Assembly (NCBI RefSeq): GCF_000010625.1
Contig: NC_010296.1
Coordinates: 3,990,001 to 4,022,000 of the forward strand
Reading direction: 5' to 3'
DNA from: Microcystis aeruginosa NIES-843
GTDB lineage: Bacteria; Cyanobacteriota; Cyanobacteriia; Cyanobacteriales; Microcystaceae
DNA: 32,000 bases
Position numbers and translations under genes: made by a program. Position 1 is the stretch's first letter. The number at the start of each line of letters is the position of its first letter. Below are positions 63 through 16,561 of this stretch, one piece after another. The notes under the pieces are model-generated. The model ran no database searches, was not told the DNA's origin, and saw only the letters and a program-made list of their open reading frames with translations.

Positions 63-1313
63 CTAATTCTGTACGCAAATATTGCATCTAGAATTAGCTT
101 TGTACGCTTTGACCCGTACTGGGTTAACTACGAACCTCTCTATCGGATTCCCGCTAAAGGCGGCCTCTCCGACTACCTTTCTTCCAATATTTAAGGAACC
201 ATTAATATCTGCTCCATAGAAATAACCCGACGAGCTTCTGAATAGTCCTCTTTTAATTCTCTTGCCTAAATAGCTTTTTTGCTTTTGAATAGACTCTAAG
301 TCCAAGAAACTACATTTAGAGGTATAGCTTTCATTAGTTGTTTTGACCTCTATTCCTACTAAATTTGCTTTATAGGTAAGTTGTTCGATCAACCTTGAAT
401 GAGGAATATTTACGAATGACTGGTTATTTCTATCTCCAATATTAATGTTTTGTTTCCAGCCTTGATTATGACCAATAACTAAAAGGTTAATTTGATGAGC
501 TAGTAATTTATCAATAATATATTTACTAGCGGTGTGGAGGTAATAATCCACCTGGCAATTACGCTTTAAAGTTAAACCTTGTATTCTTTTACTGGTCTTC
601 TGTAGACTGGGTAATTCCGATTTGAGTTTAGCTAGTGTCTTGTTGTACTTTTGATTGCAGGATTTTAAGGCTTTTCCACATACTAAAGTTGGCTGAAATT
701 CGGGAATATTAGAGGTAACAGCAGCTAGGTTATTTAAGCCTAAATCGATAAAAGCATATCTTTCTCCCTCTTGACTTGATGAGGATGGTTGTTCATAGAC
801 AATCTCTAAACAATAAGCACCCAATTTAGGAATAATCCTGACCTCTAAGACTTTCTTTAAATTAGTTTTAAATTCTCAATTAGTCCCTGATAGCTTGATT
901 AAACCTTGCTTCAACGCTTTTTGAGAAATGGCTTGATAGTTATAAGTTAAAACGTTTCTACCTTTTTCCTTGTCTTTGTATCTTGGCAACTTAGGCTCTC
1001 CTGTAAATTTATCTGGCGATTTTTTGGATTGTTCTTTCGCTTTTTGGTAGGATTTAAAGGTTTTTTCTACTTGCTTTAATACTAACTGACTTACTTTGGC
1101 GGGTAAGGCTTGATAATCTGGACTCATTTTTAAGGCATGATGTAACTCAGTCATTGTTAAAAATGGTTGATGTGAAAAGAAAACTTGACGGTTTAAATAA
1201 ACAGCACAATTATACAGATTCTTCGATAAAAATCCTAATTTATCAATTACTGAATAATTTTTGTGATTAAATTTAATTAGATGTTTTTGAACTAATTTCA
1301 TCATTCTCCTCAA
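63..1313 (-). pseudogene. tnpB: IS607-type TnpB (RNA-guided endonuclease family) split by a single in-frame TGA at 876-878
   Basis: ORFs 876-1313 and 63-824 are in the same frame (the offset of 813 is divisible by 3). Reading through gives ...IKLSGTN*EFKTNLKKVLEVRIIPKLGAYCLEIVYEQ..., about 416 codons in total. The C-terminal part has TnpB RuvC-like blocks FIDLGLNNLAA, NESYTSKC and GADINGSLNIGRK. Confidence 0.8.
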
Positions 1314-2961: not shown

Positions 2962-3309
2962 TTATCCTTTGGCTGTTTCTACCACTTTAGCAAAAGCGAC
3001 GGGATCGAGGACAGCTAATTGGGCTAACATTTTCCGATTGAGGAGGATATTAGCTTTCTTTAATTGTCCAGTCAGTTGGCTGTAACTGATGCCCTGTTGA
3101 CGGGCAGCCGCGTTAATGCGGGTAATCCAAAGACGACGAAAATCGCGTTTACGTTTGCGACGGTCTCTATAGGCATTCCGCAAGGCCTTCATTACCTGTT
3201 GGTTAGCGGTACGGAATAAGCGCGAGTGAGAACCGCGAAAACCTTTGGCTAATTTGAGAACTTTTTTGCGTCGCTTGCGGGCGACATTCCCCCGTTTTAC
3301 TCTAGACAT
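2962..3309 (-). CDS. rplT: 50S ribosomal protein L20
   Basis: 115 aa. [43 protein letters not shown] is the canonical L20 N-terminus. Confidence 0.97.
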
Positions 3310-5748: not shown

Positions 5749-6139
5749 TAGCAATTTAAGCTTACTCTGTACTTTCAACAAAAATCGAGGGGCTTTGATT
5801 AAATCTCCTCGTGAAGTAGCGACAAAACTCTCAATCCCCGCGTCAATTCCTAAACAGGTCTTCCCTACTGTCATATCGGGAACTAATTCCGTAGATTGGA
5901 AGGAAACCGAAACGTAAAATCCCGACGCTTTTTGGATAATTCGAGCTTGTTTAGGCTCGAACCCAGACGGGTATTCTCTAGATGGCCGGATTCTAATTTT
6001 TCCTAATTGTGGAAAATTTAAGTATTCGTCACCTAAGAAGTTTATTGTAGGGGGTCTAAGTGGGTTTTAGCCTAACTGCCCAATCAAACAACAATCTTAA
6101 GCTTTATCTCCTCAGTCCTCAACAGTGGTACAATTGCCG

Positions 6140-7625
<1,486 letters not shown>

Positions 7626-9876: not shown

Positions 9877-10756
9877 TTAAATTTCATCCCATCCAGTTAA
9901 GCCAGAAGACATAACATAACTGGTAACGGTTGCTTCAAAAAAGTTAGCTTTGGTGTGGCCTTCTTTTTTGGTATCGGAGAAGCGTTCCAGATGATTATAG
10001 GGACTTTTGTTATACTTTTCTTCCCTGTATAAAGGCTCAAGTCCGATCGCTTTCAGTCGAATATTAGCGAGGTATTTGGTGTACTGTTCGGTACTGTATT
10101 CGGTAATACCTAAAATGTCGTTGCCAACAATGTGATTTGTCCAGCGACATTCGTGTTTAACGGCCGTATCGAACATCTCATAAATCTGTTCAACGGAATG
10201 GGAAAAAGTTGCCATGGCTTCGGGAATAAGTTTCTGATACAAACGGACGTGACTTAATTCGTCCCGGTTGATCATTTTGAAAACGTCAGCACTACCGGAC
10301 ATTAGCTGTCGAGAAGCGAGATTATAGAAAAAGATAAAGCCGTTGTAAAAATACAAACTCTCTAGCAAATAATCGGCGACAAGGGCGATAAAATAGCTTT
10401 CAGTAGTTTGTTTATCGATGTATTGCTGGTAGAGACTAGCGATAAATTGACAGCGATCCTTGAGAACTTTATCGGTGCGCCAAAAGTCATAAACTTCGCC
10501 TCGGCGCTCGGAGGGAATAATGGTTTCAATTAAGTATTGATAACTTTGATTGTGCATGGCTTCTTGGGAAATTTGTTCCGCCATACAAAGACTAATTTCT
10601 GGCGCAGTGACGCTACCTTTTAGGTGGGGAATATTACAGGTTTGTACGGAATCAAGAAAAGTTAGATAGGACAAAATACCATCATAAGCATATCTTTCTT
10701 CATCGGTAAGATGCCCGTATTCAGTCACGTCTTGAGTGATATCTAAGCGTTGTGGT
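9877..10756 (-). CDS. nrdB: Ribonucleotide reductase class Ia beta subunit, exon 2
   Basis: ...PQRLDITQDVTEYGHLTDEERYAYDGILSYLTFLDSVQ...EAMHNQSYQY...NRDELSHV...TSYVMSSGLTGWDEI carries typical R2 ferritin-like iron-ligand blocks. Joined to exon 1 it gives 1068 nt, or 355 aa, in frame. Confidence 0.85.
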
Positions 10757-11553
10757 CATTTATGTTCAATTAGGTTCGCTACCCCTAACCCGCTTTATTC
10801 AAGCTGCCATCTGTCACCAAATGGATCGGACTATATCATCATCCTTTGCTTATGCAAAGGAGTCCCCCGCTTCGACAGTCAATCGCTTACTGCCTACTTT
10901 ACTTAGTCAGATATGATCTGCTGTTCATTAGTCTCTACACCTTCTGCTTTTTTTCTAGCAGCTTGGCACGGTATTGTCTGTGGTGCAAAATCCTGTGACA
11001 GTTGGAACACAAGAGAATACACTTATCTAATTCCTTGAACACCTTTTCTTTCTTCAACATCAACATATCTGATGGGGTATATTCCTTCTCAGAGGGTTCG
11101 ATGTGATGAAAATCAAAGGCCGCAATAGTGTCTTCCGTTGCAGCAAATCCACATTCGGAACAGTACCCTCCTTTATAGAGGCAAAACTCAAGTTTTTTTT
11201 GGTTTTTAAACTGAGCATCTCTGTACTTCTGAGAATACTGTTTACTGTAAGTGGATCTTTTTTCTTTATTTCGCTCAATGTAGGCTTTTATTTTTGCGTT
11301 TCCTTCGCTTGATGCGTAATACTGTCGCTTGTATTCACAAGTACAGCTTTTACACCTTGCTACTGTCCCGCTTTTTAGCCTTTTATCTTTGTGAAATTCA
11401 GAAATCGGTTTTGTGGTATGACACTTAGCGCAAGTCTTGCTTTCCATTTGTTTTGTTGTGCGATACATATTACGCACTATAACAAATTTTCTTGCAAGAT
11501 AGATCACAGAGTTTCACCGTTTTCAGGGGATTTAGTCTGGACTACCTTATTTA
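10757..11553 (-). ncRNA. Group I intron interrupting nrdB (797 nt, ORF-containing)
   Basis: The exon ends CUGGAU, and an internal guide GUCCAG lies 11 nt into the intron. This gives a 6-bp P1 with U.G at the splice site. The adjacent GGU can pair with the 3'-exon ACC (P10). An R-like element GAGACUAAUG and an S-like element GAUAUAGUCCG provide the GACUA/UAGUC P7 pair. The intron ends in G, and the splice restores NFWI-PQRLDITQD. Boundaries are inferred, not demonstrated. Confidence 0.75.
10935..11468 (-). CDS. Intron-encoded HNH-family homing endonuclease (Zn-knuckle N-terminal region)
   Basis: The C-terminal FDFHHIEPSEK...LDKCILLCSNCHRILHH is an HNH motif. Upstream are CxxC pairs (CAKCH...CKSCTC, CSECG). 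The ORF lies wholly inside the intron and its stop overlaps the R element. The start is ambiguous: ATG at 11468 or 11447, while the track uses GTG at 11507. Confidence 0.8.
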   Translation of the reverse strand: MYRTTKQMESKTCAKCHTTKPISEFHKDKRLKSGTVARCKSCTCEYKRQYYASSEGNAKIKAYIERNKEKRSTYSKQYSQKYRDAQFKNQKKLEFCLYKGGYCSECGFAATEDTIAAFDFHHIEPSEKEYTPSDMLMLKKEKVFKELDKCILLCSNCHRILHHRQYRAKLLEKKQKV

Positions 11554-11741
11554 ATCCAGAAATTTTCGCGCATTTGTTGATATAAACCCACCGCCCAGGT
11601 GTAGCGGACATCGTTTAACTGCATCAGGTTGGTGGTGTTACCAAACCAGATCGAACGGTTTTCGATCGCATCATCTCCCGCTGGATTGAAGATCGGGGAA
11701 ATGGGCATCGAATGGCAAGAATTAACTAAATGTAAGGACAT
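11554..11741 (-). CDS. nrdB: Ribonucleotide reductase class Ia beta subunit, exon 1
   Basis: MSLHLVNSCHSMPISPIFNPAGDDAIENRSIWFGNTTNLMQLNDVRYTWAVGLYQQMRENFWI is an R2 N-terminal region ending in the conserved NFW block. The track ORF terminates 2 codons into the intron. Confidence 0.85.
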
Positions 11742-11794: not shown

Positions 11795-12247
11795 TCAAAT
11801 GTTTTGATTTTGATTAGGAATAAATGCAAAATCTAGGGCTTCTGCCAAAGTAAATGGGCAATCCTTCGGGAATTTCTCTAGGTTTATCCCTGTTTCAATA
11901 GCGGCTTTTTTTCTGGCCTTATTATAGCATTTTTTTAAATTGTCTTCTGTTAAAAAACTCTTAAGACTAGGGCTATTTTCTAAATCTTCTTCGATTCTTT
12001 CTCGCTGCTCAAAAAGGGTTAATGCCCAGCTTCTGGTTTGTTTTTCTGGCTCTTGTAAGTATTTTAGTAAATGCCATAAAATCACGATCAGATTGCTTTT
12101 AAGGGCTTTCTGTTGACTGATAGACATAGATTTTATTTCGTCAATTAAATTCTCTAAATCTAAATCAGAAAATTGATGATTTTCTAGTAAATATATGGTT
12201 TTCTCTAGCCAGAGATAGTAGTCCTTTTCGTATAATTTCTTTTCCAT
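11795..12247 (-). CDS. DUF29 family protein, copy 5 (most divergent)
   Basis: MEKKLYEKDYYLWLEKTIYLLENHQFSDLDLENLIDEIKSM... The start was placed at the ATG that follows GGGGGTAATT (residue 5 of the track ORF). Confidence 0.85.
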   Translation of the reverse strand: MEKKLYEKDYYLWLEKTIYLLENHQFSDLDLENLIDEIKSMSISQQKALKSNLIVILWHLLKYLQEPEKQTRSWALTLFEQRERIEEDLENSPSLKSFLTEDNLKKCYNKARKKAAIETGINLEKFPKDCPFTLAEALDFAFIPNQNQNI

Positions 12248-12258
12248 AATTACCCCCA

Positions 12259-12711
12259 TTATTTTGATATTTCAGGAAACCAATCCTCATTTAAAGCCTG
12301 TTCTATAGTGCAAATTGGAGCTAAACCGACCAAATTTTCAGCCATTCCAGATAATTCGATCAAAGAAATACGAGCTTCTTGAAAAGAGTTGTTAAAAATT
12401 TCAATTAGATAAGGCTGTAGACTAGGACTATCGGCAATAATTCTTTTTATGGCACGACGGAAATTCCTAATTTCATTTTTCCATCCTCTTTGATTATATT
12501 CTAATTCCGATTCCCAGTAAGCTAGTTTCAGCAAATGTTCTAATAACCGAGTTAAATAACTTTCTAAACTTCGTTTCTCACTTTTACCCATGCTACTAAT
12601 TTCGTCAATTAAATTCTCTAAATCTAAATCAGAAAACCGATGATTTTCTAGTAAAGATATGGTTTTTTCTAACCAGAGATAGTAGTCTTTTTCGTATAAG
12701 TTCTTTTCCAT
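12259..12711 (-). CDS. DUF29 family protein, copy 4
   Basis: MEKNLYEKDYYLWLEKTISLLENHRFSDLDLENLIDEISSMGKSEKRSLESYLTRLLEHLLKLAYWESE... The last 31 aa are identical to copy 3. Confidence 0.87.
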   Translation of the reverse strand: MEKNLYEKDYYLWLEKTISLLENHRFSDLDLENLIDEISSMGKSEKRSLESYLTRLLEHLLKLAYWESELEYNQRGWKNEIRNFRRAIKRIIADSPSLQPYLIEIFNNSFQEARISLIELSGMAENLVGLAPICTIEQALNEDWFPEISK

Positions 12712-12723
12712 AATTATCCCCCA

Positions 12724-13176
12724 TTATTTTGATATTTCAGGAAACCAATCCTCATTTAAAGCCTGTTCTATAGTGCAAATTGGAGCTAAACCGACCAAAT
12801 TTTCAGCCATTCCAGATAAATCCAGAAACAATTTACGGGCATTTTGATAACAGGACGAGAAAATTTCCGATAGATAGGGCTTTAAACTGGGACTGTCTTC
12901 AATAATTTGTTGAATTCCTAGGCGAAAGTTACGAATTTCATTTTTCCATCCTCTTTGATTATATTCTAATTCCGACTGCCAGTAAACCAGTTTTAGCAAA
13001 TGTTCTAATAACCGAGTCAAATAACTCTTTAAACTTTGTCGTTGGCTTTTGCCCATGTCGCTAATCTCCTCGATGAGATTATCCAAATCTAAATCGGAAA
13101 ATTGATGATTTTCTAGTAAAGATATGGTTTTCTCTATCCAGAGATAATAATCTTTTTCGTATAAATCACTCTTCAT
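12724..13176 (-). CDS. DUF29 family protein, copy 3
   Basis: MKSDLYEKDYYLWIEKTISLLENHQFSDLDLDNLIEEISDMGKSQRQSLKSYLTRLLEHLLKLVYWQSE... Confidence 0.87.
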   Translation of the reverse strand: MKSDLYEKDYYLWIEKTISLLENHQFSDLDLDNLIEEISDMGKSQRQSLKSYLTRLLEHLLKLVYWQSELEYNQRGWKNEIRNFRLGIQQIIEDSPSLKPYLSEIFSSCYQNARKLFLDLSGMAENLVGLAPICTIEQALNEDWFPEISK

Positions 13177-13179
13177 TGC

Positions 13180-13656
13180 TTAATCCTCTCCGAGAAACTC
13201 AGGAAACCAATTTTCATCTAAAATTTGGTCGATTGCTCCCATAGGTGTAGCACTTAAAAGTCTTTTATCGATGCCATAACCTTCGACAAATAGATGGCAA
13301 GCATCCTCATAACATTGCTCAAGAATCTCGGTGAGGTAAGATGCTAAGTTTGTATTATAAGTTCCATCCTTTTTGTTGCTAATAATTCTTTTTATTTGAA
13401 TGCGAAAATTTAAAATCTCACGTCGCCACTTGTTTTTATTGTAATCGCGCTTAGATTGCCAATAAGTTAATTTAAGTAAATGTTCCAAGAGTTTAGTTAG
13501 TAAACTCTCTAACTTCTGACGTTCTCTTCTGGACATATCTTTGATTTCTTCAATTAAATTTTCTAAATCCAACTCAGAAAACTGGCGATTTTCTAGTAAA
13601 GATATGGTTTTCTCTAACCAAAGATAGTAATCCTGTTCGTATAAGTTCGTTTCCAT
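13180..13656 (-). CDS. DUF29 family protein, copy 2
   Basis: METNLYEQDYYLWLEKTISLLENRQFSELDLENLIEEIKDMSRRERQKLESLLTKLLEHLLKLTYWQSK... Confidence 0.87.
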   Translation of the reverse strand: METNLYEQDYYLWLEKTISLLENRQFSELDLENLIEEIKDMSRRERQKLESLLTKLLEHLLKLTYWQSKRDYNKNKWRREILNFRIQIKRIISNKKDGTYNTNLASYLTEILEQCYEDACHLFVEGYGIDKRLLSATPMGAIDQILDENWFPEFLGED

Positions 13657-13694
13657 AGTCCCTCACCTTAATTAACTATAATCCAACCAAATCA

Positions 13695-14156
13695 TCAGTT
13701 ATTATTATCCTCATATTCAGGAAACCAATCATCATCCAAAGCTTGGGCAAGAGTGAGAATTTTTTCCCTGGGCAAAGTATTGATTTTTACTCCCATTTTT
13801 CTAGCTAGGATACGAAGGGCTGACTGATAACATTTATCAAAACTATTCTCTAGATAGGACTTTAAACTTGGATTATCATCAAGAACTTCCCATAAATCAA
13901 TTCTAAAAATAGTAATTTCTCCTTTCCAGTGATTAGCATTATATTGGCTTTCCGATTGCCAATAAGCGAGTTGCAGCAAATGTTGGATTATTCTAGTCAA
14001 TAAACTTGTTAAGGTATGTTTTTCCTTGATACCCATACTTTTAATCTCCTCGATGAGATTATCTAAATCTAAATCGGAAAATTGATGATTTTCTAGTAAA
14101 GATATGGTTTTCTCTATCCAGAGATAGTAATCCTGTTCGTATAAAGTCTTATCCAT
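13695..14156 (-). CDS. DUF29 family protein, copy 1
   Basis: MDKTLYEQDYYLWIEKTISLLENHQFSDLDLDNLIEEIKSMGIKEKHTLTSLLTRIIQHLLQLAYWQSE... The start was set at residue 28 of the track ORF by homology to the other copies. The track extension reads through the nrdA terminator palindrome. Confidence 0.85.
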   Translation of the reverse strand: MDKTLYEQDYYLWIEKTISLLENHQFSDLDLDNLIEEIKSMGIKEKHTLTSLLTRIIQHLLQLAYWQSESQYNANHWKGEITIFRIDLWEVLDDNPSLKSYLENSFDKCYQSALRILARKMGVKINTLPREKILTLAQALDDDWFPEYEDNNN

Positions 14157-14207
14157 AGCTGTGATTAGGTGATCAATAAAACTCATTTTATCAGTCCTAA
14201 TCTTTGA

Positions 14208-14238
14208 TGTAAAAAAATTAAGGTGGGCATTGCCCACC
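14208..14238 (-). terminator. Intrinsic terminator immediately after nrdA
   Basis: The minus strand reads GGUGGGCAAUGCCCACC (perfect palindrome at 14222-14238, 7-8 bp GC-rich stem), followed directly by UUAAUUUUUUUAC. It begins 10 nt after the nrdA stop. Confidence 0.75.
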
Positions 14239-14248
14239 GAAGTTAACC

Positions 14249-16561
14249 TTAATTAGCGCAACTAGAACAACTATCGTCAGACTCTCGAAAATTGTCCTTT
14301 TGTACGGTACGGATATAATAAATCGCTTTACACCCCAATTCCCAGGCCATAACTAGGGTATCAAAGATATCTTTGGCAGTGAGACAACGGTTGGGTTCTT
14401 CGGGGAAATAAACCCCTTCATTGAGGTTGAATAATAACTCCATAGAAATCCCCGTATCGATCCATTCTTGCATAGTAGCGATCGCTTTCACCACTTGCTG
14501 CTGTTCGAGATTTTTGTTCTCTGAATAAAACCAGAAAGCTTCTTCAATAAAAGGTGGTGCGATGGGAACGGTTCCCTTTGCCCATTTATCGTAGAAAAAG
14601 CGACTATAAACCGGCAAAACACTAGCGGTACATCCCTGTACCAAACTAGAGGAAGTATTAGGAGCAATGGCGGTAATATGGGAATTACGGATGCCAAATC
14701 GTTGAATATCTGTTGCTAATTGTTGCCATCTTTGCGGTTGCACCGCATTATTTAAAAACCATGCCACTGGTTTTGCTCCGATTAATTTACCTTGACTCCA
14801 TTCACTACCCAAGAAAGCTTGATAAGCACCGCGTTCTTTGGCTAATTCCATCGAGGAATAGGTACACCAATAGCCAATTTCTTCAAATAAATTACTAATT
14901 TCTGACAGGTTATTGTAGGATAATTTCCGTTTAGCTAACCAGTCAGCCAATCCCATCGCCCCTACCCCAATAGTGCGATATTTATCGTTGTGGTTTTTAG
15001 CATTATCAAAGGGAGGATTAGTGATATCGATAGTATTGTCGAGAATCCTGACAGCGATTTGACAATTAGACTCGATTTCTTCCCTGTCGATATTGGCTAA
15101 ATTAAGGCTAACTAAATTACAGCAATGGGCAGTTTTATCGGGGGTGACATTCGAGAAACTCTCCGTGCATAAATTTACACCGGGGATATAGCCATCGTGC
15201 TTATTAGGATTAGCGCGATTGATGGTATCTTTGAAGGCAATGTAGGGCATTCCTGTTTCTACTTGGGAACGCATGATACTTTTAAATAAGTCTCGGGCAT
15301 TGATTTTTTTATAGAGGAGAATCTCTTGATCTAAATTAGCTTCTACTAAACGATAGGCCTCTTCAAATTCTTCCCCCCATAGTTCCGCTAATTCTATACC
15401 TAATTTATTGCGAACTTCGTAGGGATCTACTAATGTCCACTCGGCTTTATTTATCACCCGACGCATGAATTCATCGGTGATAACTAATTGGGGAAAAACA
15501 TCATAAGCTTTACGTCTTTGATCACCGTTTTCTGTCTGCATTTCCAGAAATTCTGGCACATCTAAATGCCAGATGTCAACACCGATAGTTACTGCCCCGG
15601 CGCGTCTTCCCCCCTGATTTACTGCAATAGCTGTATCGTTGAGTAATTTAATCCAAGGAATAATCCCCCCGGAAGCATTAGCTTTCCCCATTACCCAGCT
15701 ACCAGTGGCGCGAATTCTACTCACATTCACCCCGACACCGCCACCATTTTTTGAGATGCGGGCAGCATTAGTAATCTCGTCGAAAATGCTTTCTAAACTG
15801 TCGTCAATGGAGAGGATAAAACAACTGGTTAAGGAACCTTTGGGAGTGCGTAAATTGGCTAAAATTGGGGTGGCGAGAGAGATTTTTCTTTGAGCAATCG
15901 CTTGATAAAATTTCTTCGCCCAGGGGAGTCTATTAGCTGGTTCTTCCACAGTGGCAAGCAGCAAGGAACAGGTTAATAATGCCTCTTGGGGTAACTCATT
16001 TTTGAGTAAATAACGGCTAGTGATTAACAATGCCCCTGCGTAATCATAATCGATGTCCCAATCGGAATTAATCCAAGAACCAGCTTCTTTTAATTCTGCC
16101 TCGGAATAGATGAGAATCCTTTCGTCGTATAGCAACTTTTTAACTTGAGTTTTGACAGTTTTCTCGTAATTTCCGTACTGATAACCCCGGGCTACTAAGG
16201 TATCTTTCCAAAGACTCCAAATATGCAATCTTCCCGCCACATAGCGCCAATCCGGTTCCTCTGGACTACACATTTCTAGAGCGCAATTAATTAAATTATC
16301 CTGTATTTCCCTAGTGGTAATCCCATCCCGCAGGCGTGTGGTTAAACCCGCTTCTAAGGCGATTGAATTGACTTTTTTGCCCTCACAAGCCCACTCTACC
16401 ACGTCGCGAATTTTGCCGATATTTAAGCTTGTGGTGGAACCATCGCGCCGAATCACTCTAATTCCATGGCTGCCCATATTAGCTAAAGGGGTAGAACGAA
16501 AGGGTATTACTTCGTTATTTTTGTGAATGGAAACGGCAGTAGTCAAGGGCTTCGATTGCAT
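14249..16561 (-). CDS. nrdA: Ribonucleotide reductase class Ia alpha subunit (with N-terminal ATP-cone)
   Basis: 770 aa. Contains an ATP-cone-like IRVIRRDGSTTSLNIGKIRDVV, the catalytic blocks LTSCFIL, NGGGVGVN, NLCTE and PNTSSS, and the C-terminal redox pair CSSC. Confidence 0.95.
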   Translation of the reverse strand: MQSKPLTTAVSIHKNNEVIPFRSTPLANMGSHGIRVIRRDGSTTSLNIGKIRDVVEWACEGKKVNSIALEAGLTTRLRDGITTREIQDNLINCALEMCSPEEPDWRYVAGRLHIWSLWKDTLVARGYQYGNYEKTVKTQVKKLLYDERILIYSEAELKEAGSWINSDWDIDYDYAGALLITSRYLLKNELPQEALLTCSLLLATVEEPANRLPWAKKFYQAIAQRKISLATPILANLRTPKGSLTSCFILSIDDSLESIFDEITNAARISKNGGGVGVNVSRIRATGSWVMGKANASGGIIPWIKLLNDTAIAVNQGGRRAGAVTIGVDIWHLDVPEFLEMQTENGDQRRKAYDVFPQLVITDEFMRRVINKAEWTLVDPYEVRNKLGIELAELWGEEFEEAYRLVEANLDQEILLYKKINARDLFKSIMRSQVETGMPYIAFKDTINRANPNKHDGYIPGVNLCTESFSNVTPDKTAHCCNLVSLNLANIDREEIESNCQIAVRILDNTIDITNPPFDNAKNHNDKYRTIGVGAMGLADWLAKRKLSYNNLSEISNLFEEIGYWCTYSSMELAKERGAYQAFLGSEWSQGKLIGAKPVAWFLNNAVQPQRWQQLATDIQRFGIRNSHITAIAPNTSSSLVQGCTASVLPVYSRFFYDKWAKGTVPIAPPFIEEAFWFYSENKNLEQQQVVKAIATMQEWIDTGISMELLFNLNEGVYFPEEPNRCLTAKDIFDTLVMAWELGCKAIYYIRTVQKDNFRESDDSCSSCAN

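Follow-up and report, generated by a model that had tools for sequence, protein, structure and literature searches.

The stretch of DNA analysed here, 32,000 nucleotides of Microcystis aeruginosa NIES-843 (contig NC_010296.1, positions 3,990,001 to 4,022,000; referred to as the window), contains the gene nrdB of a ribonucleotide reductase (RNR) in two parts. The two parts are separated by an insert of 797 nt. The insert (10757-11553) is a group I intron with an internal open reading frame (ORF), judged by its comparative structure, its homology to proven phage introns and an empty-site allele. Very probably, it is a mobile intron of the phage IA2 type, lying between the second and third base of codon 63 of a chromosomal class Ia nrdB. 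An earlier note on this DNA had attributed the split in nrdB to a group I intron that bears an ORF for an HNH homing endonuclease, and the same three lines of evidence bear this out. The note gave no strand; all of its features are located on the minus strand, to which the coordinates refer unless marked otherwise.

The two exons could be delimited to the base. Exon 1 (11554-11741, 188 nt) comprises codons 1-62 and the first two bases of Ile63 and ends in ...MRENFW + AT. Its residues 1-63 were recovered with 100% identity by tblastn. Read from 11741, its frame begins with MSLHLVNS, runs up to YQQMRENFWI and, after two further codons, reaches an in-frame UAA (11547-11549), two codons inside the intron, which ends exon-1 translation (ORF 11547-11741, ending ...FWIK before the stop). 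In the intron copies that were read, an in-frame stop was found within 2-4 codons of the 5' splice site. Exon 2 (9877-10756, 880 nt) extends from the third base of Ile63 to the stop codon at 9877, in a frame different from that of the exon-1 ORF. It opens with A CCA CAA CGC (I/PQR; here and below, a slash marks a junction), and its ORF reads ...PQRLDITQDVTEYGH.... Exactly 797 nt (11553-10757) separate the exons.

Joined, the 188 + 880 nt encode 355 aa plus a stop, as the earlier note had it, and the predicted ligated junction is TTCTGGAT followed by ACCACAACG. The joined protein scored 341.9 bits against NCBIfam NF007184 (the NrdB equivalog model, cutoff 310) and 1.5e-66 against Pfam Ribonuc_red_sm. 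Residues 14-347 were aligned with positions 7-340 of NF007184, which means that there is no indel at the exon join. Over its full length and without gaps, the joined NrdB was 99% identical to the uninterrupted 355-aa NrdB of Microcystis sp. M090S1; by its sequence, the host is a Microcystis-type cyanobacterium. The join ENFW-I-PQR is an invariant or near-invariant stretch in ten uninterrupted cyanobacterial NrdBs, to which the joined protein was aligned without gaps (N60, F61, W62 and P64 invariant, I63 nearly so). Gene callers divide intron-bearing nrdB into three 'hypothetical' ORFs, and the gene looks broken in annotations.

The fold of the insert was derived by hand from the window sequence and comprises P1, P3-P6a, P7, P7.1, P7.2, P8, P9, P9.1 and P9.2. 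It was tested on 13 homologous copies in a sequence-based MAFFT alignment, with the body of the ORF replaced by a GAAA linker and 8 nt kept per exon. As controls, the 3' partners were slid by 1-3 columns, and the columns were shuffled 500 times. Standard pairs were formed in 94.3% of the alignment cells, compared with 36-41% for the slid partners. Changes on both sides were found in 38 of the 78 pairs, compared with 4-17 in the slid controls. None of the 500 shuffles matched the observed pairing or covariation values. In the window copy, all core helices are intact.

The 5' splice site lies in P1, a helix of 6 bp between the last six exon bases, CUGGAU (11554-11559), and the internal guide sequence GUCCAG (11537-11542). 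P1 was 100% paired, and the final U of the exon formed the proposed U.G pair at the splice site in 13 of 13 copies. The fifth pair was A-U in ten copies, G-C in two and C-G in one, following Ile, Val and Leu in the exon. Lyngbya and Limnoraphis have the exon CUGGGU (Val for Ile) with the guide GCCCAG, and one further copy (L176) has the exon CUGGCU (Leu) with the guide GGCCAG. Where the exon codon differs, the guide differs to match, which makes sense only if the P1 helix forms; the position of the 5' splice site is thereby fixed.

The 5' strands of P3 (11530-11524), P4 (11520-11515) and P5 (11510-11505) are close together at 11505-11530. P3 and P4 were 100% paired, with three pairs and one pair changed on both sides, and P5 was 83% paired, with two. 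Downstream, P5' (10982-10977), P4' (10973-10968) and the P6/P6a hairpin (10967-10939) occupy 10939-10982; P6 and P6a were each 100% paired with two pairs changed on both sides. The 5' strand of P7, GACUA (10929-10933), lies in the R element, and its 3' strand, UAGUC (10829-10833), lies in the S element GAUAUAGUC. These are the R and S elements that had been named in the earlier note. The P7 pairing has the right topology for the P3 pseudoknot and matches the Rfam consensus AGACUA...GAUAUAGUC.

Between the strands of P7 are the peripheral hairpins P7.1 (10920-10908) and P7.2 (10894-10874), together spanning 10874-10920 and typical of subgroup IA, as well as P3' (10869-10863) and the P8 hairpin (10861-10842), spanning 10842-10869. 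P7.2 was 100% paired (four pairs changed on both sides) and P8 81% (five pairs), the length of P8 varying among copies. The 3' part (10768-10824) holds P9 with a GUGA loop (10824-10807), P9.1 (10804-10792) and P9.2 (10790-10768). P9 and P9.2 were 98-99% paired and had changes on both sides in six of seven pairs each. The intron ends at the 3' splice site with the expected terminal G (omega-G, 10757), and all copies read ...G/ACC.

In E-value mode with permissive filters, the Rfam model RF00028 (Intron_gpI) matched the window at 31.8 bits (local E=4.8e-6). The alignment was convincing from AGACUA through P8 and GAUAUAGUC to P9, while the 5' half was forced onto coding sequence. As positive controls in the same mode, the proven ORF-bearing introns of T4 td and T4 nrdB scored 40.3 and 35.7 bits. 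A sequence-only nhmmer profile of the 3' domain of the ribozyme was searched against phage introns and related loci. It matched the T4 td intron (9e-15), the T4 nrdB intron (1e-11), a Bacillus phage td intron (6.5e-25) and the split RNAP2 of phage JWDelta (2.3e-24). By blastn, the last 90-150 nt of the intron were 74-81% identical to phage sequences. Two of these matches are split genes with an internal endonuclease-type ORF, namely the thymidylate synthase gene of vB_BceH_LY2 and RNAP2 of Achromobacter phage JWDelta. From the P7.1/P7.2 hairpins and the 3'-domain homology, the ribozyme groups with phage IA introns (IA2-like), the finer IA2 assignment resting on similarity to T4-type introns and not on the full subgroup key.

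The ORF (10935-11447) is located in the loop of P5 and encodes a predicted HNH homing endonuclease of 170 aa from a conserved ATG (MESK...). Alternative starts lie upstream (ATG 11468 and GTG 11507), but the homologs start at the same M-E/D-S-K as the ATG at 11447. Its stop codon, UAG (10937-10935), stands two bases 5' of GACUA; the earlier note had the stop overlapping the R element. The last ~16 codons (...HHRQYRAKLLEKKQKV) double as P5', J5/4, P4', P6 and P6a, and the P5'-P6a stretch overlaps the conserved peptide HHRQYRAK. The overlap with the ribozyme core probably explains the strong conservation of this peptide.

The protein was assigned to the HNH endonucleases because of PHROGs, BFVD and its motifs. 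PHROG 2255 ('HNH endonuclease') matched at 6e-30. The protein has two CxxC pairs towards its N-terminus and, towards its C-terminus, a CxxC...FDFHH...CSNCHRILH module, with residues that vary little or not at all among 22 homologs. On a 177-aa query starting MYRT, C103/C106, F118-D-F-H-H122, C154-S-N-C157 and H162 are invariant, and H158 is nearly so (>=90%). The AlphaFold model of the ORF has a mean pLDDT (predicted local distance difference test) of 81.9. A fold search of BFVD with this model gave phage HNH endonucleases (best 2.8e-11; 98 matches at E<=0.001). Between copies, the ratio of nonsynonymous to synonymous substitution rates (dN/dS) of the ORF was 0.05-0.16 where informative; therefore, the protein is maintained by purifying selection.

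Close homologs of the ORF (62-95% identity) were found in other cyanobacteria, and all those whose locus was found belong to an nrdB interrupted at codon 63. The hosts of the codon-63 intron are Synechocystis, Lyngbya, Limnoraphis robusta, a Coleofasciculaceae metagenome-assembled genome (MAG), several cyanobacterial MAGs and another Microcystis. ORF homologs at 43-52% identity are also found at codon 63, in NrdBs only ~37% identical to that of the window; these divergent hosts are probably viral. A scan of 185,579 species genomes, bounded by the peptide patterns used, gave close relatives of the ORF in about nine, all cyanobacteria. About nine genomes with the intron keep intact nrdB exons. 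One copy (L020) is a 451-nt version of the intron in which only ORF residues 133-177 are still recognisable. Such a degenerate copy would be the decay stage expected of a homing cycle.

The earlier note had suggested a comparison with intron-less nrdB alleles of related strains, and an empty site was found at the syntenic locus of Microcystis M090S1 (L179). There, the gene order is as in the window (nrdA, five DUF29 genes, nrdB, NAD kinase, CpeS, ThiC), the flanks are 97-99% identical to the window and nrdB is uninterrupted. The empty site reads TGGATT/CCG (...GAAAATTTCTGGATTCCGCAACGC...), and occupied sites read TGGAT/.../ACC. The locus is thus polymorphic for the presence of the intron. Two of the 25 differences between the exons of the window and L179 lie within 4 nt of the site, both synonymous, which hints at a short co-conversion tract. 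When metagenomes were scanned for the ligated junction with ATA CCN codons, two long genomic contigs were found, which are intron-less alleles and not spliced transcripts.

The earlier note had also considered that the element may be phage-derived. The homology of the 3' domain to phage introns supports this, as does an 8-kb IMG/VR contig (L091/L173, IMGVR_UViG_3300016263_001390), in which the intron is 97.6% identical to that of the window and nrdB exon 2 only 73.5%. Neighbouring genes on the contig match PHROG families of virion structural, head decoration and tail fibre proteins, and one of their products shares 40% identity with a protein of Microcystis phage Mvi-JY20. Its exon 2 and flank gave no blastn match to sequenced phages, and its NrdB is 44.8% identical to the NrdB of the Ma-LMM01 type; the phage, if it is one, is therefore unsequenced. 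The contrast between 97.6% and 73.5% indicates a recent lateral transfer involving a phage or prophage. Either the intron has passed in recent times from one to the other of a phage-like genome and the chromosome of Microcystis, or both drew on a common pool.

Several points weigh against the reading as a mobile, self-splicing intron. Splicing and DNA cleavage are predictions from sequence. The fold was taken from the window, one of the aligned sequences, which inflates the share of paired cells (94.3%) relative to the slid controls, and the 13 copies are related, so that cell counts are non-independent events. P7 is invariant in 13 of 13 copies, and covariation is therefore uninformative there; P7.1 was only 73% paired and poorly aligned. 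The possible P10 of the earlier note is present in the window, where GGU (11544-11546) can pair with ACC of the 3' exon (10754-10756). However, 5 of 13 copies cannot form its third pair, and there is zero covariation. P10 is kept as a possibility only and was dropped as a defining feature.

At the Rfam gathering score of 50 bits, RF00028, the model through which the earlier note had expected the intron to be recognised, gave zero matches in the window and in eight related loci. The T4 td and nrdB introns also stay below 50 bits, and annotated phage introns at two loci (L171 and L172) were likewise missed at gathering, whereas the ORF-less intron at another site of Microcystis nrdB (codon 203) passes with 65.5 bits. 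The threshold therefore penalises ORF-bearing introns, and the gathering test is not discriminating. On the protein side, Pfam HNH (PF01844) misses the ORF even at E<=1, although a few distant homologs carry a precomputed PF01844 annotation, and neither NCBIfam nor Pfam holds a family for it. Searching the PDB by sequence yielded nothing beyond the McrA motif, at a marginal E=0.026, and a PDB fold search with the model gave nothing at E<=0.001; the weak fold matches are mostly HNH domains (Cap5, Cas9 HNH, T4 endonuclease VII). As regards mobility, intron-less alleles can likewise read ATA CCG, with the A that opens the 3' exon, which weakens the co-conversion argument. The phage-like contig is only 8 kb long; it may come from a prophage or be a piece of chromosome that was misclassified.

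The following mechanism is proposed. The pre-mRNA can form P1 and the P3-P9 catalytic core with the P3/P7 pseudoknot and the terminal G. Splicing would proceed by the standard two-step guanosine-initiated transesterification and would restore the nrdB mRNA. Work on T4 introns established that ribosomes must be kept out of the folding ribozyme, which the in-frame UAA fits: two codons into the intron, it would free ribosomes before they reach the ribozyme. As the end of the ORF is at the same time P5', P4' and P6, translation of the ORF and folding of the ribozyme should be mutually exclusive in a given RNA molecule. The catalytic core would be unfolded by any ribosome that reads the ORF to its end, and translation of the endonuclease would compete with splicing. 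The HNH enzyme would cut or nick intron-less nrdB near TGGATT/CCG, and repair from an intron-bearing copy would spread the element (homing). Indirect signs of homing are the empty-site polymorphism, the 97.6% intron identity against 73.5% in the exon and the use of the same codon in ~37%-identical NrdBs.

Of the alternatives, the one that survives best leaves the ribozyme active but takes away the role of the ORF. The ORF would no longer be a homing endonuclease but an inactive passenger, a maturase-like helper or a nuclease in another use of host or phage. The missing Pfam HNH match, the decayed copy with 451 nt and the annotation of T4 I-TevIII itself as defective fit this idea, as does a C-terminal frameshift between the near-identical copies of the window and the phage-like contig. 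It is still quite improbable, since the ORF is under strong purifying selection and the window copy has kept every Cys, His and Asn that is invariant in the family. Moreover, the 97.6% versus 73.5% contrast and the shared site in ~37%-identical NrdBs are the footprints expected of endonuclease-driven spread. The frameshift itself concerns an A-run in the P6a loop (10949-10955), which has seven A in the window and eight in the 97.6%-identical copy (L091). It shifts the tail of the protein from ...KKQKV to ...KKAEGVETNEQQIISD, each followed by a stop. As both tails recur in the family, the C-terminal tail seems dispensable.

A second alternative is that the intron splices no longer or too poorly, nrdB being a pseudogene in the making and dNTPs (deoxynucleoside triphosphates) coming from another RNR. 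Only 32 kb of the genome are visible here, and some cyanobacteria use a class II RNR. Against this, both exons are intact, with a dN/dS of 0.03-0.06 relative to intron-less and intron-bearing alleles (0.03 for exon 2 relative to the intron-less allele), so that nrdB appears to be alive and functional. The partner gene nrdA (14249-16561, 770 aa) is likewise intact, 2.5 kb from nrdB, and the window holds no second nrdB. The intact core helices and the persistence of the intron in about nine genomes with intact exons speak further for a spliced gene, and decay of nrdB is very improbable. That an essential RNR subunit depends on splicing is a reasonable inference, with the 32-kb window as the part inspected for RNRs.

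Least credible of all is a free-standing endonuclease gene that splits nrdB without RNA splicing, NrdB assembling from polypeptides of 64 aa and ~283 aa: ORF callers do see three separate ORFs, an in-frame GTG at 10728 could start the 283-aa fragment and RNR genes that are split yet work without splicing are documented (Aeromonas phage Aeh1 nrdA/mobE, PMC3653736). Against this, the ORF is bordered on both sides by a conserved RNA structure in which 38 pairs are compensatory, and the guide covaries with the exon base beside the junction, which would make no sense without P1. Every copy has the terminal G, homology links the ribozyme part to proven T4 introns, and the GTG lies nine codons inside exon 2, with loss of the conserved PQRLDITQD. 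Other kinds of insert were discarded. An intein is excluded by the length of 797 nt, which is not a multiple of 3, and by the in-frame UAA two codons in. A group II intron is excluded, as no group II Rfam family matched at E<=10 and the ORF is an HNH protein without a reverse transcriptase domain. An insertion sequence (IS) and a free-standing homing endonuclease gene were considered and rejected.

Given a mobile IA2-type intron, a further-reaching idea concerns its present activity. The intron might now be shuttling between the nrdB of a cyanophage and the chromosomal nrdB of Microcystis (~27% diverged), with the HNH enzyme as a weapon in competition. We consider this unlikely. If it were true, an intron carrier could cut the intron-less nrdB of its partner, as in marker exclusion, between phage and host or between phages. 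The presence/absence polymorphism in bloom populations would be a selected trait and not neutral parasitism. If the codon-203 intron and the nrdA intein of other strains are added, the RNR operon of Microcystis would be an arena of competing homing elements.

Among known systems, the closest described analogue is the IA2 intron nrdF-IVS6 with a homing endonuclease gene in the chromosomal nrdF of the Bacillus cereus group (Tourasse and Kolsto 2008, PMC2504315). Like the Microcystis intron, it is an IA2 intron in a chromosomal, non-prophage RNR small-subunit gene and usually bears an endonuclease. Both are also patchy among strains, with exon changes beside the site and similarity to phage introns. 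The two differ in the host (Firmicutes versus cyanobacteria) and in the gene (class Ib nrdF versus class Ia nrdB), and splicing of nrdF-IVS6 was shown in vivo, while that of the Microcystis intron is predicted from sequence.

The earlier note had drawn a parallel to T4 nrdB and I-TevIII, which holds as an analogy only. The T4/RB3 nrdB intron also lies in a class Ia nrdB, belongs to group IA and has an HNH-class ORF; its 3' domain is homologous (nhmmer 1e-11), and its Rfam score is 35.7 bits versus 31.8 bits. However, it is inserted after about residue 220 (...RFYVSFA), whereas the Microcystis intron follows residue 63, which corresponds to about residue 48 of T4 (FFW/RPEE). T4 has its intron ORF in the loop of P6a, in contrast to the Microcystis ORF in the P5 loop, which overlaps P5'-P6. 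BLASTP with the ORF gave E=0.20 for the T4 I-TevIII remnant (a remnant, not the full-length RB3 I-TevIII) and E=4.3 for MobE, which is no specific similarity. By these comparisons, the Microcystis intron does not appear to belong to the T4 nrdB intron lineage in the strict sense. The td introns of T4 and Bacillus phages (e.g. vB_BceH_LY2) gave the best 3'-domain matches (P7.2/P3'/P8/P7'/P9) among the introns tested. They differ in the host gene, thymidylate synthase, and the T4 td endonuclease is the GIY-YIG enzyme I-TevI.

In cyanobacteria, group I introns have been described in large-subunit or class II RNR genes, as in Nostoc punctiforme RIR and Arthrospira (cited in PMC3984707 and PMC12702839). 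These lie in another RNR gene and not in the small subunit, and they can be set beside the Microcystis intron by description only. The Nostoc RIR intron is said to carry an IS element rather than an HNH endonuclease. An IA2 intron with an HNH endonuclease is also known from the cyanobacterial virus world, in a different gene and in a phage instead of a chromosome. It is a precedent for HNH intron enzymes that nick and do not cut both strands, its likeness to the Microcystis intron again being one of description.

Group I introns are rare in chromosomal protein-coding genes of bacteria; the reported cases are flagellin, recA, Bacillus nrdE/nrdF and a few cyanobacterial RNR large-subunit genes (PMC3984707, PMC12702839, PMC2504315). 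A full-text literature search gave no report of a group I intron in a cyanobacterial nrdB; coverage of the literature was incomplete, and this is absence of evidence only. Mobile group I introns of phage type that bring an HNH homing endonuclease into RNR genes are a well-known kind of element; this one is new in its host, gene and site. What makes it attractive is the covariation of P1 with the exon, the overlap of the ORF with the ribozyme core, the strain polymorphism in a bloom-forming cyanobacterium and the near-identical phage-like copy. If splicing is confirmed, the dNTP supply of an intron-bearing Microcystis strain rests on a ribozyme. The strain-level polymorphism is a natural system for testing the fitness cost of an intron in a bloom-former. 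The exchange between a phage-like genome and the chromosome of its probable host is a clean recent case, and the ORF is a new HNH endonuclease with a defined conserved target of ~20-30 bp, provided that it cleaves as predicted. In practice, the gene callers leave an essential gene looking broken in annotations, and the Rfam threshold misses the intron.

Other insertions were observed in nrdB. Two loci with Microcystis-type nrdB (L182, VYLO01000063.1 ~417-746, minus strand, and L181, VYLR01000151.1; 96-97% aa identity) are without the codon-63 intron. They carry an ORF-less group I intron of ~318 nt between codons 203 and 204 (FYNG/FIFF; the 65.5-bit match mentioned above), within about two codons of the T4 nrdB intron position. 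Across strains, at least two distinct introns are thus found in the nrdB of Microcystis. In an uncultured cyanobacterial MAG (L015, 977-1744), nrdB has the codon-63 intron and a second insertion of ~770 nt near residue 134. This is probably an intron of a related type, as its 3' end matches the ribozyme profile (nhmmer 2.4e-15). In Lyngbya sp. (L018), the nrdB intron has an extra insertion of ~120 nt between P9.1 and P9.2 (~3150-3280), and an additional ribozyme-like match (454-619, nhmmer 6e-24) lies ~1.8 kb upstream of nrdB, probably inside nrdA.

A 105-kb metagenome contig (L174) has an nrdB with a divergent member of the intron family, and its nrdA is also split (513-1244). The intervening ORF has a weak NUMOD3 match, which suggests another endonuclease insertion. 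In phage JWDelta, the 'hypothetical protein' JJJA_0016 (L172, 886-1446) between the RNAP2 fragments resembles the window ORF in its N-terminal CxxC zinc-finger region (BLASTP 9e-6). The homologous ribozyme 3' domain follows closely downstream, which suggests an unannotated group I intron in the RNA polymerase gene of this phage.

Differences between strains also extend to nrdA. In M090S1 (L179, 1-493), nrdA encodes 1119 aa with intein and LAGLIDADG Pfam matches, while nrdB is intron-less; the window nrdA is without an intein. The selfish elements of the RNR operon thus differ between the two strains. Between nrdA and nrdB, the window has five tandem DUF29 genes of 150-180 aa each (11795-14237), an array that is also present in L179. 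On the plus strand, a thiamine pyrophosphate (TPP) riboswitch (Rfam RF00059, 66.7 bits, 6138-6234) lies directly upstream of thiC (6243-7625), which is an ordinary arrangement.

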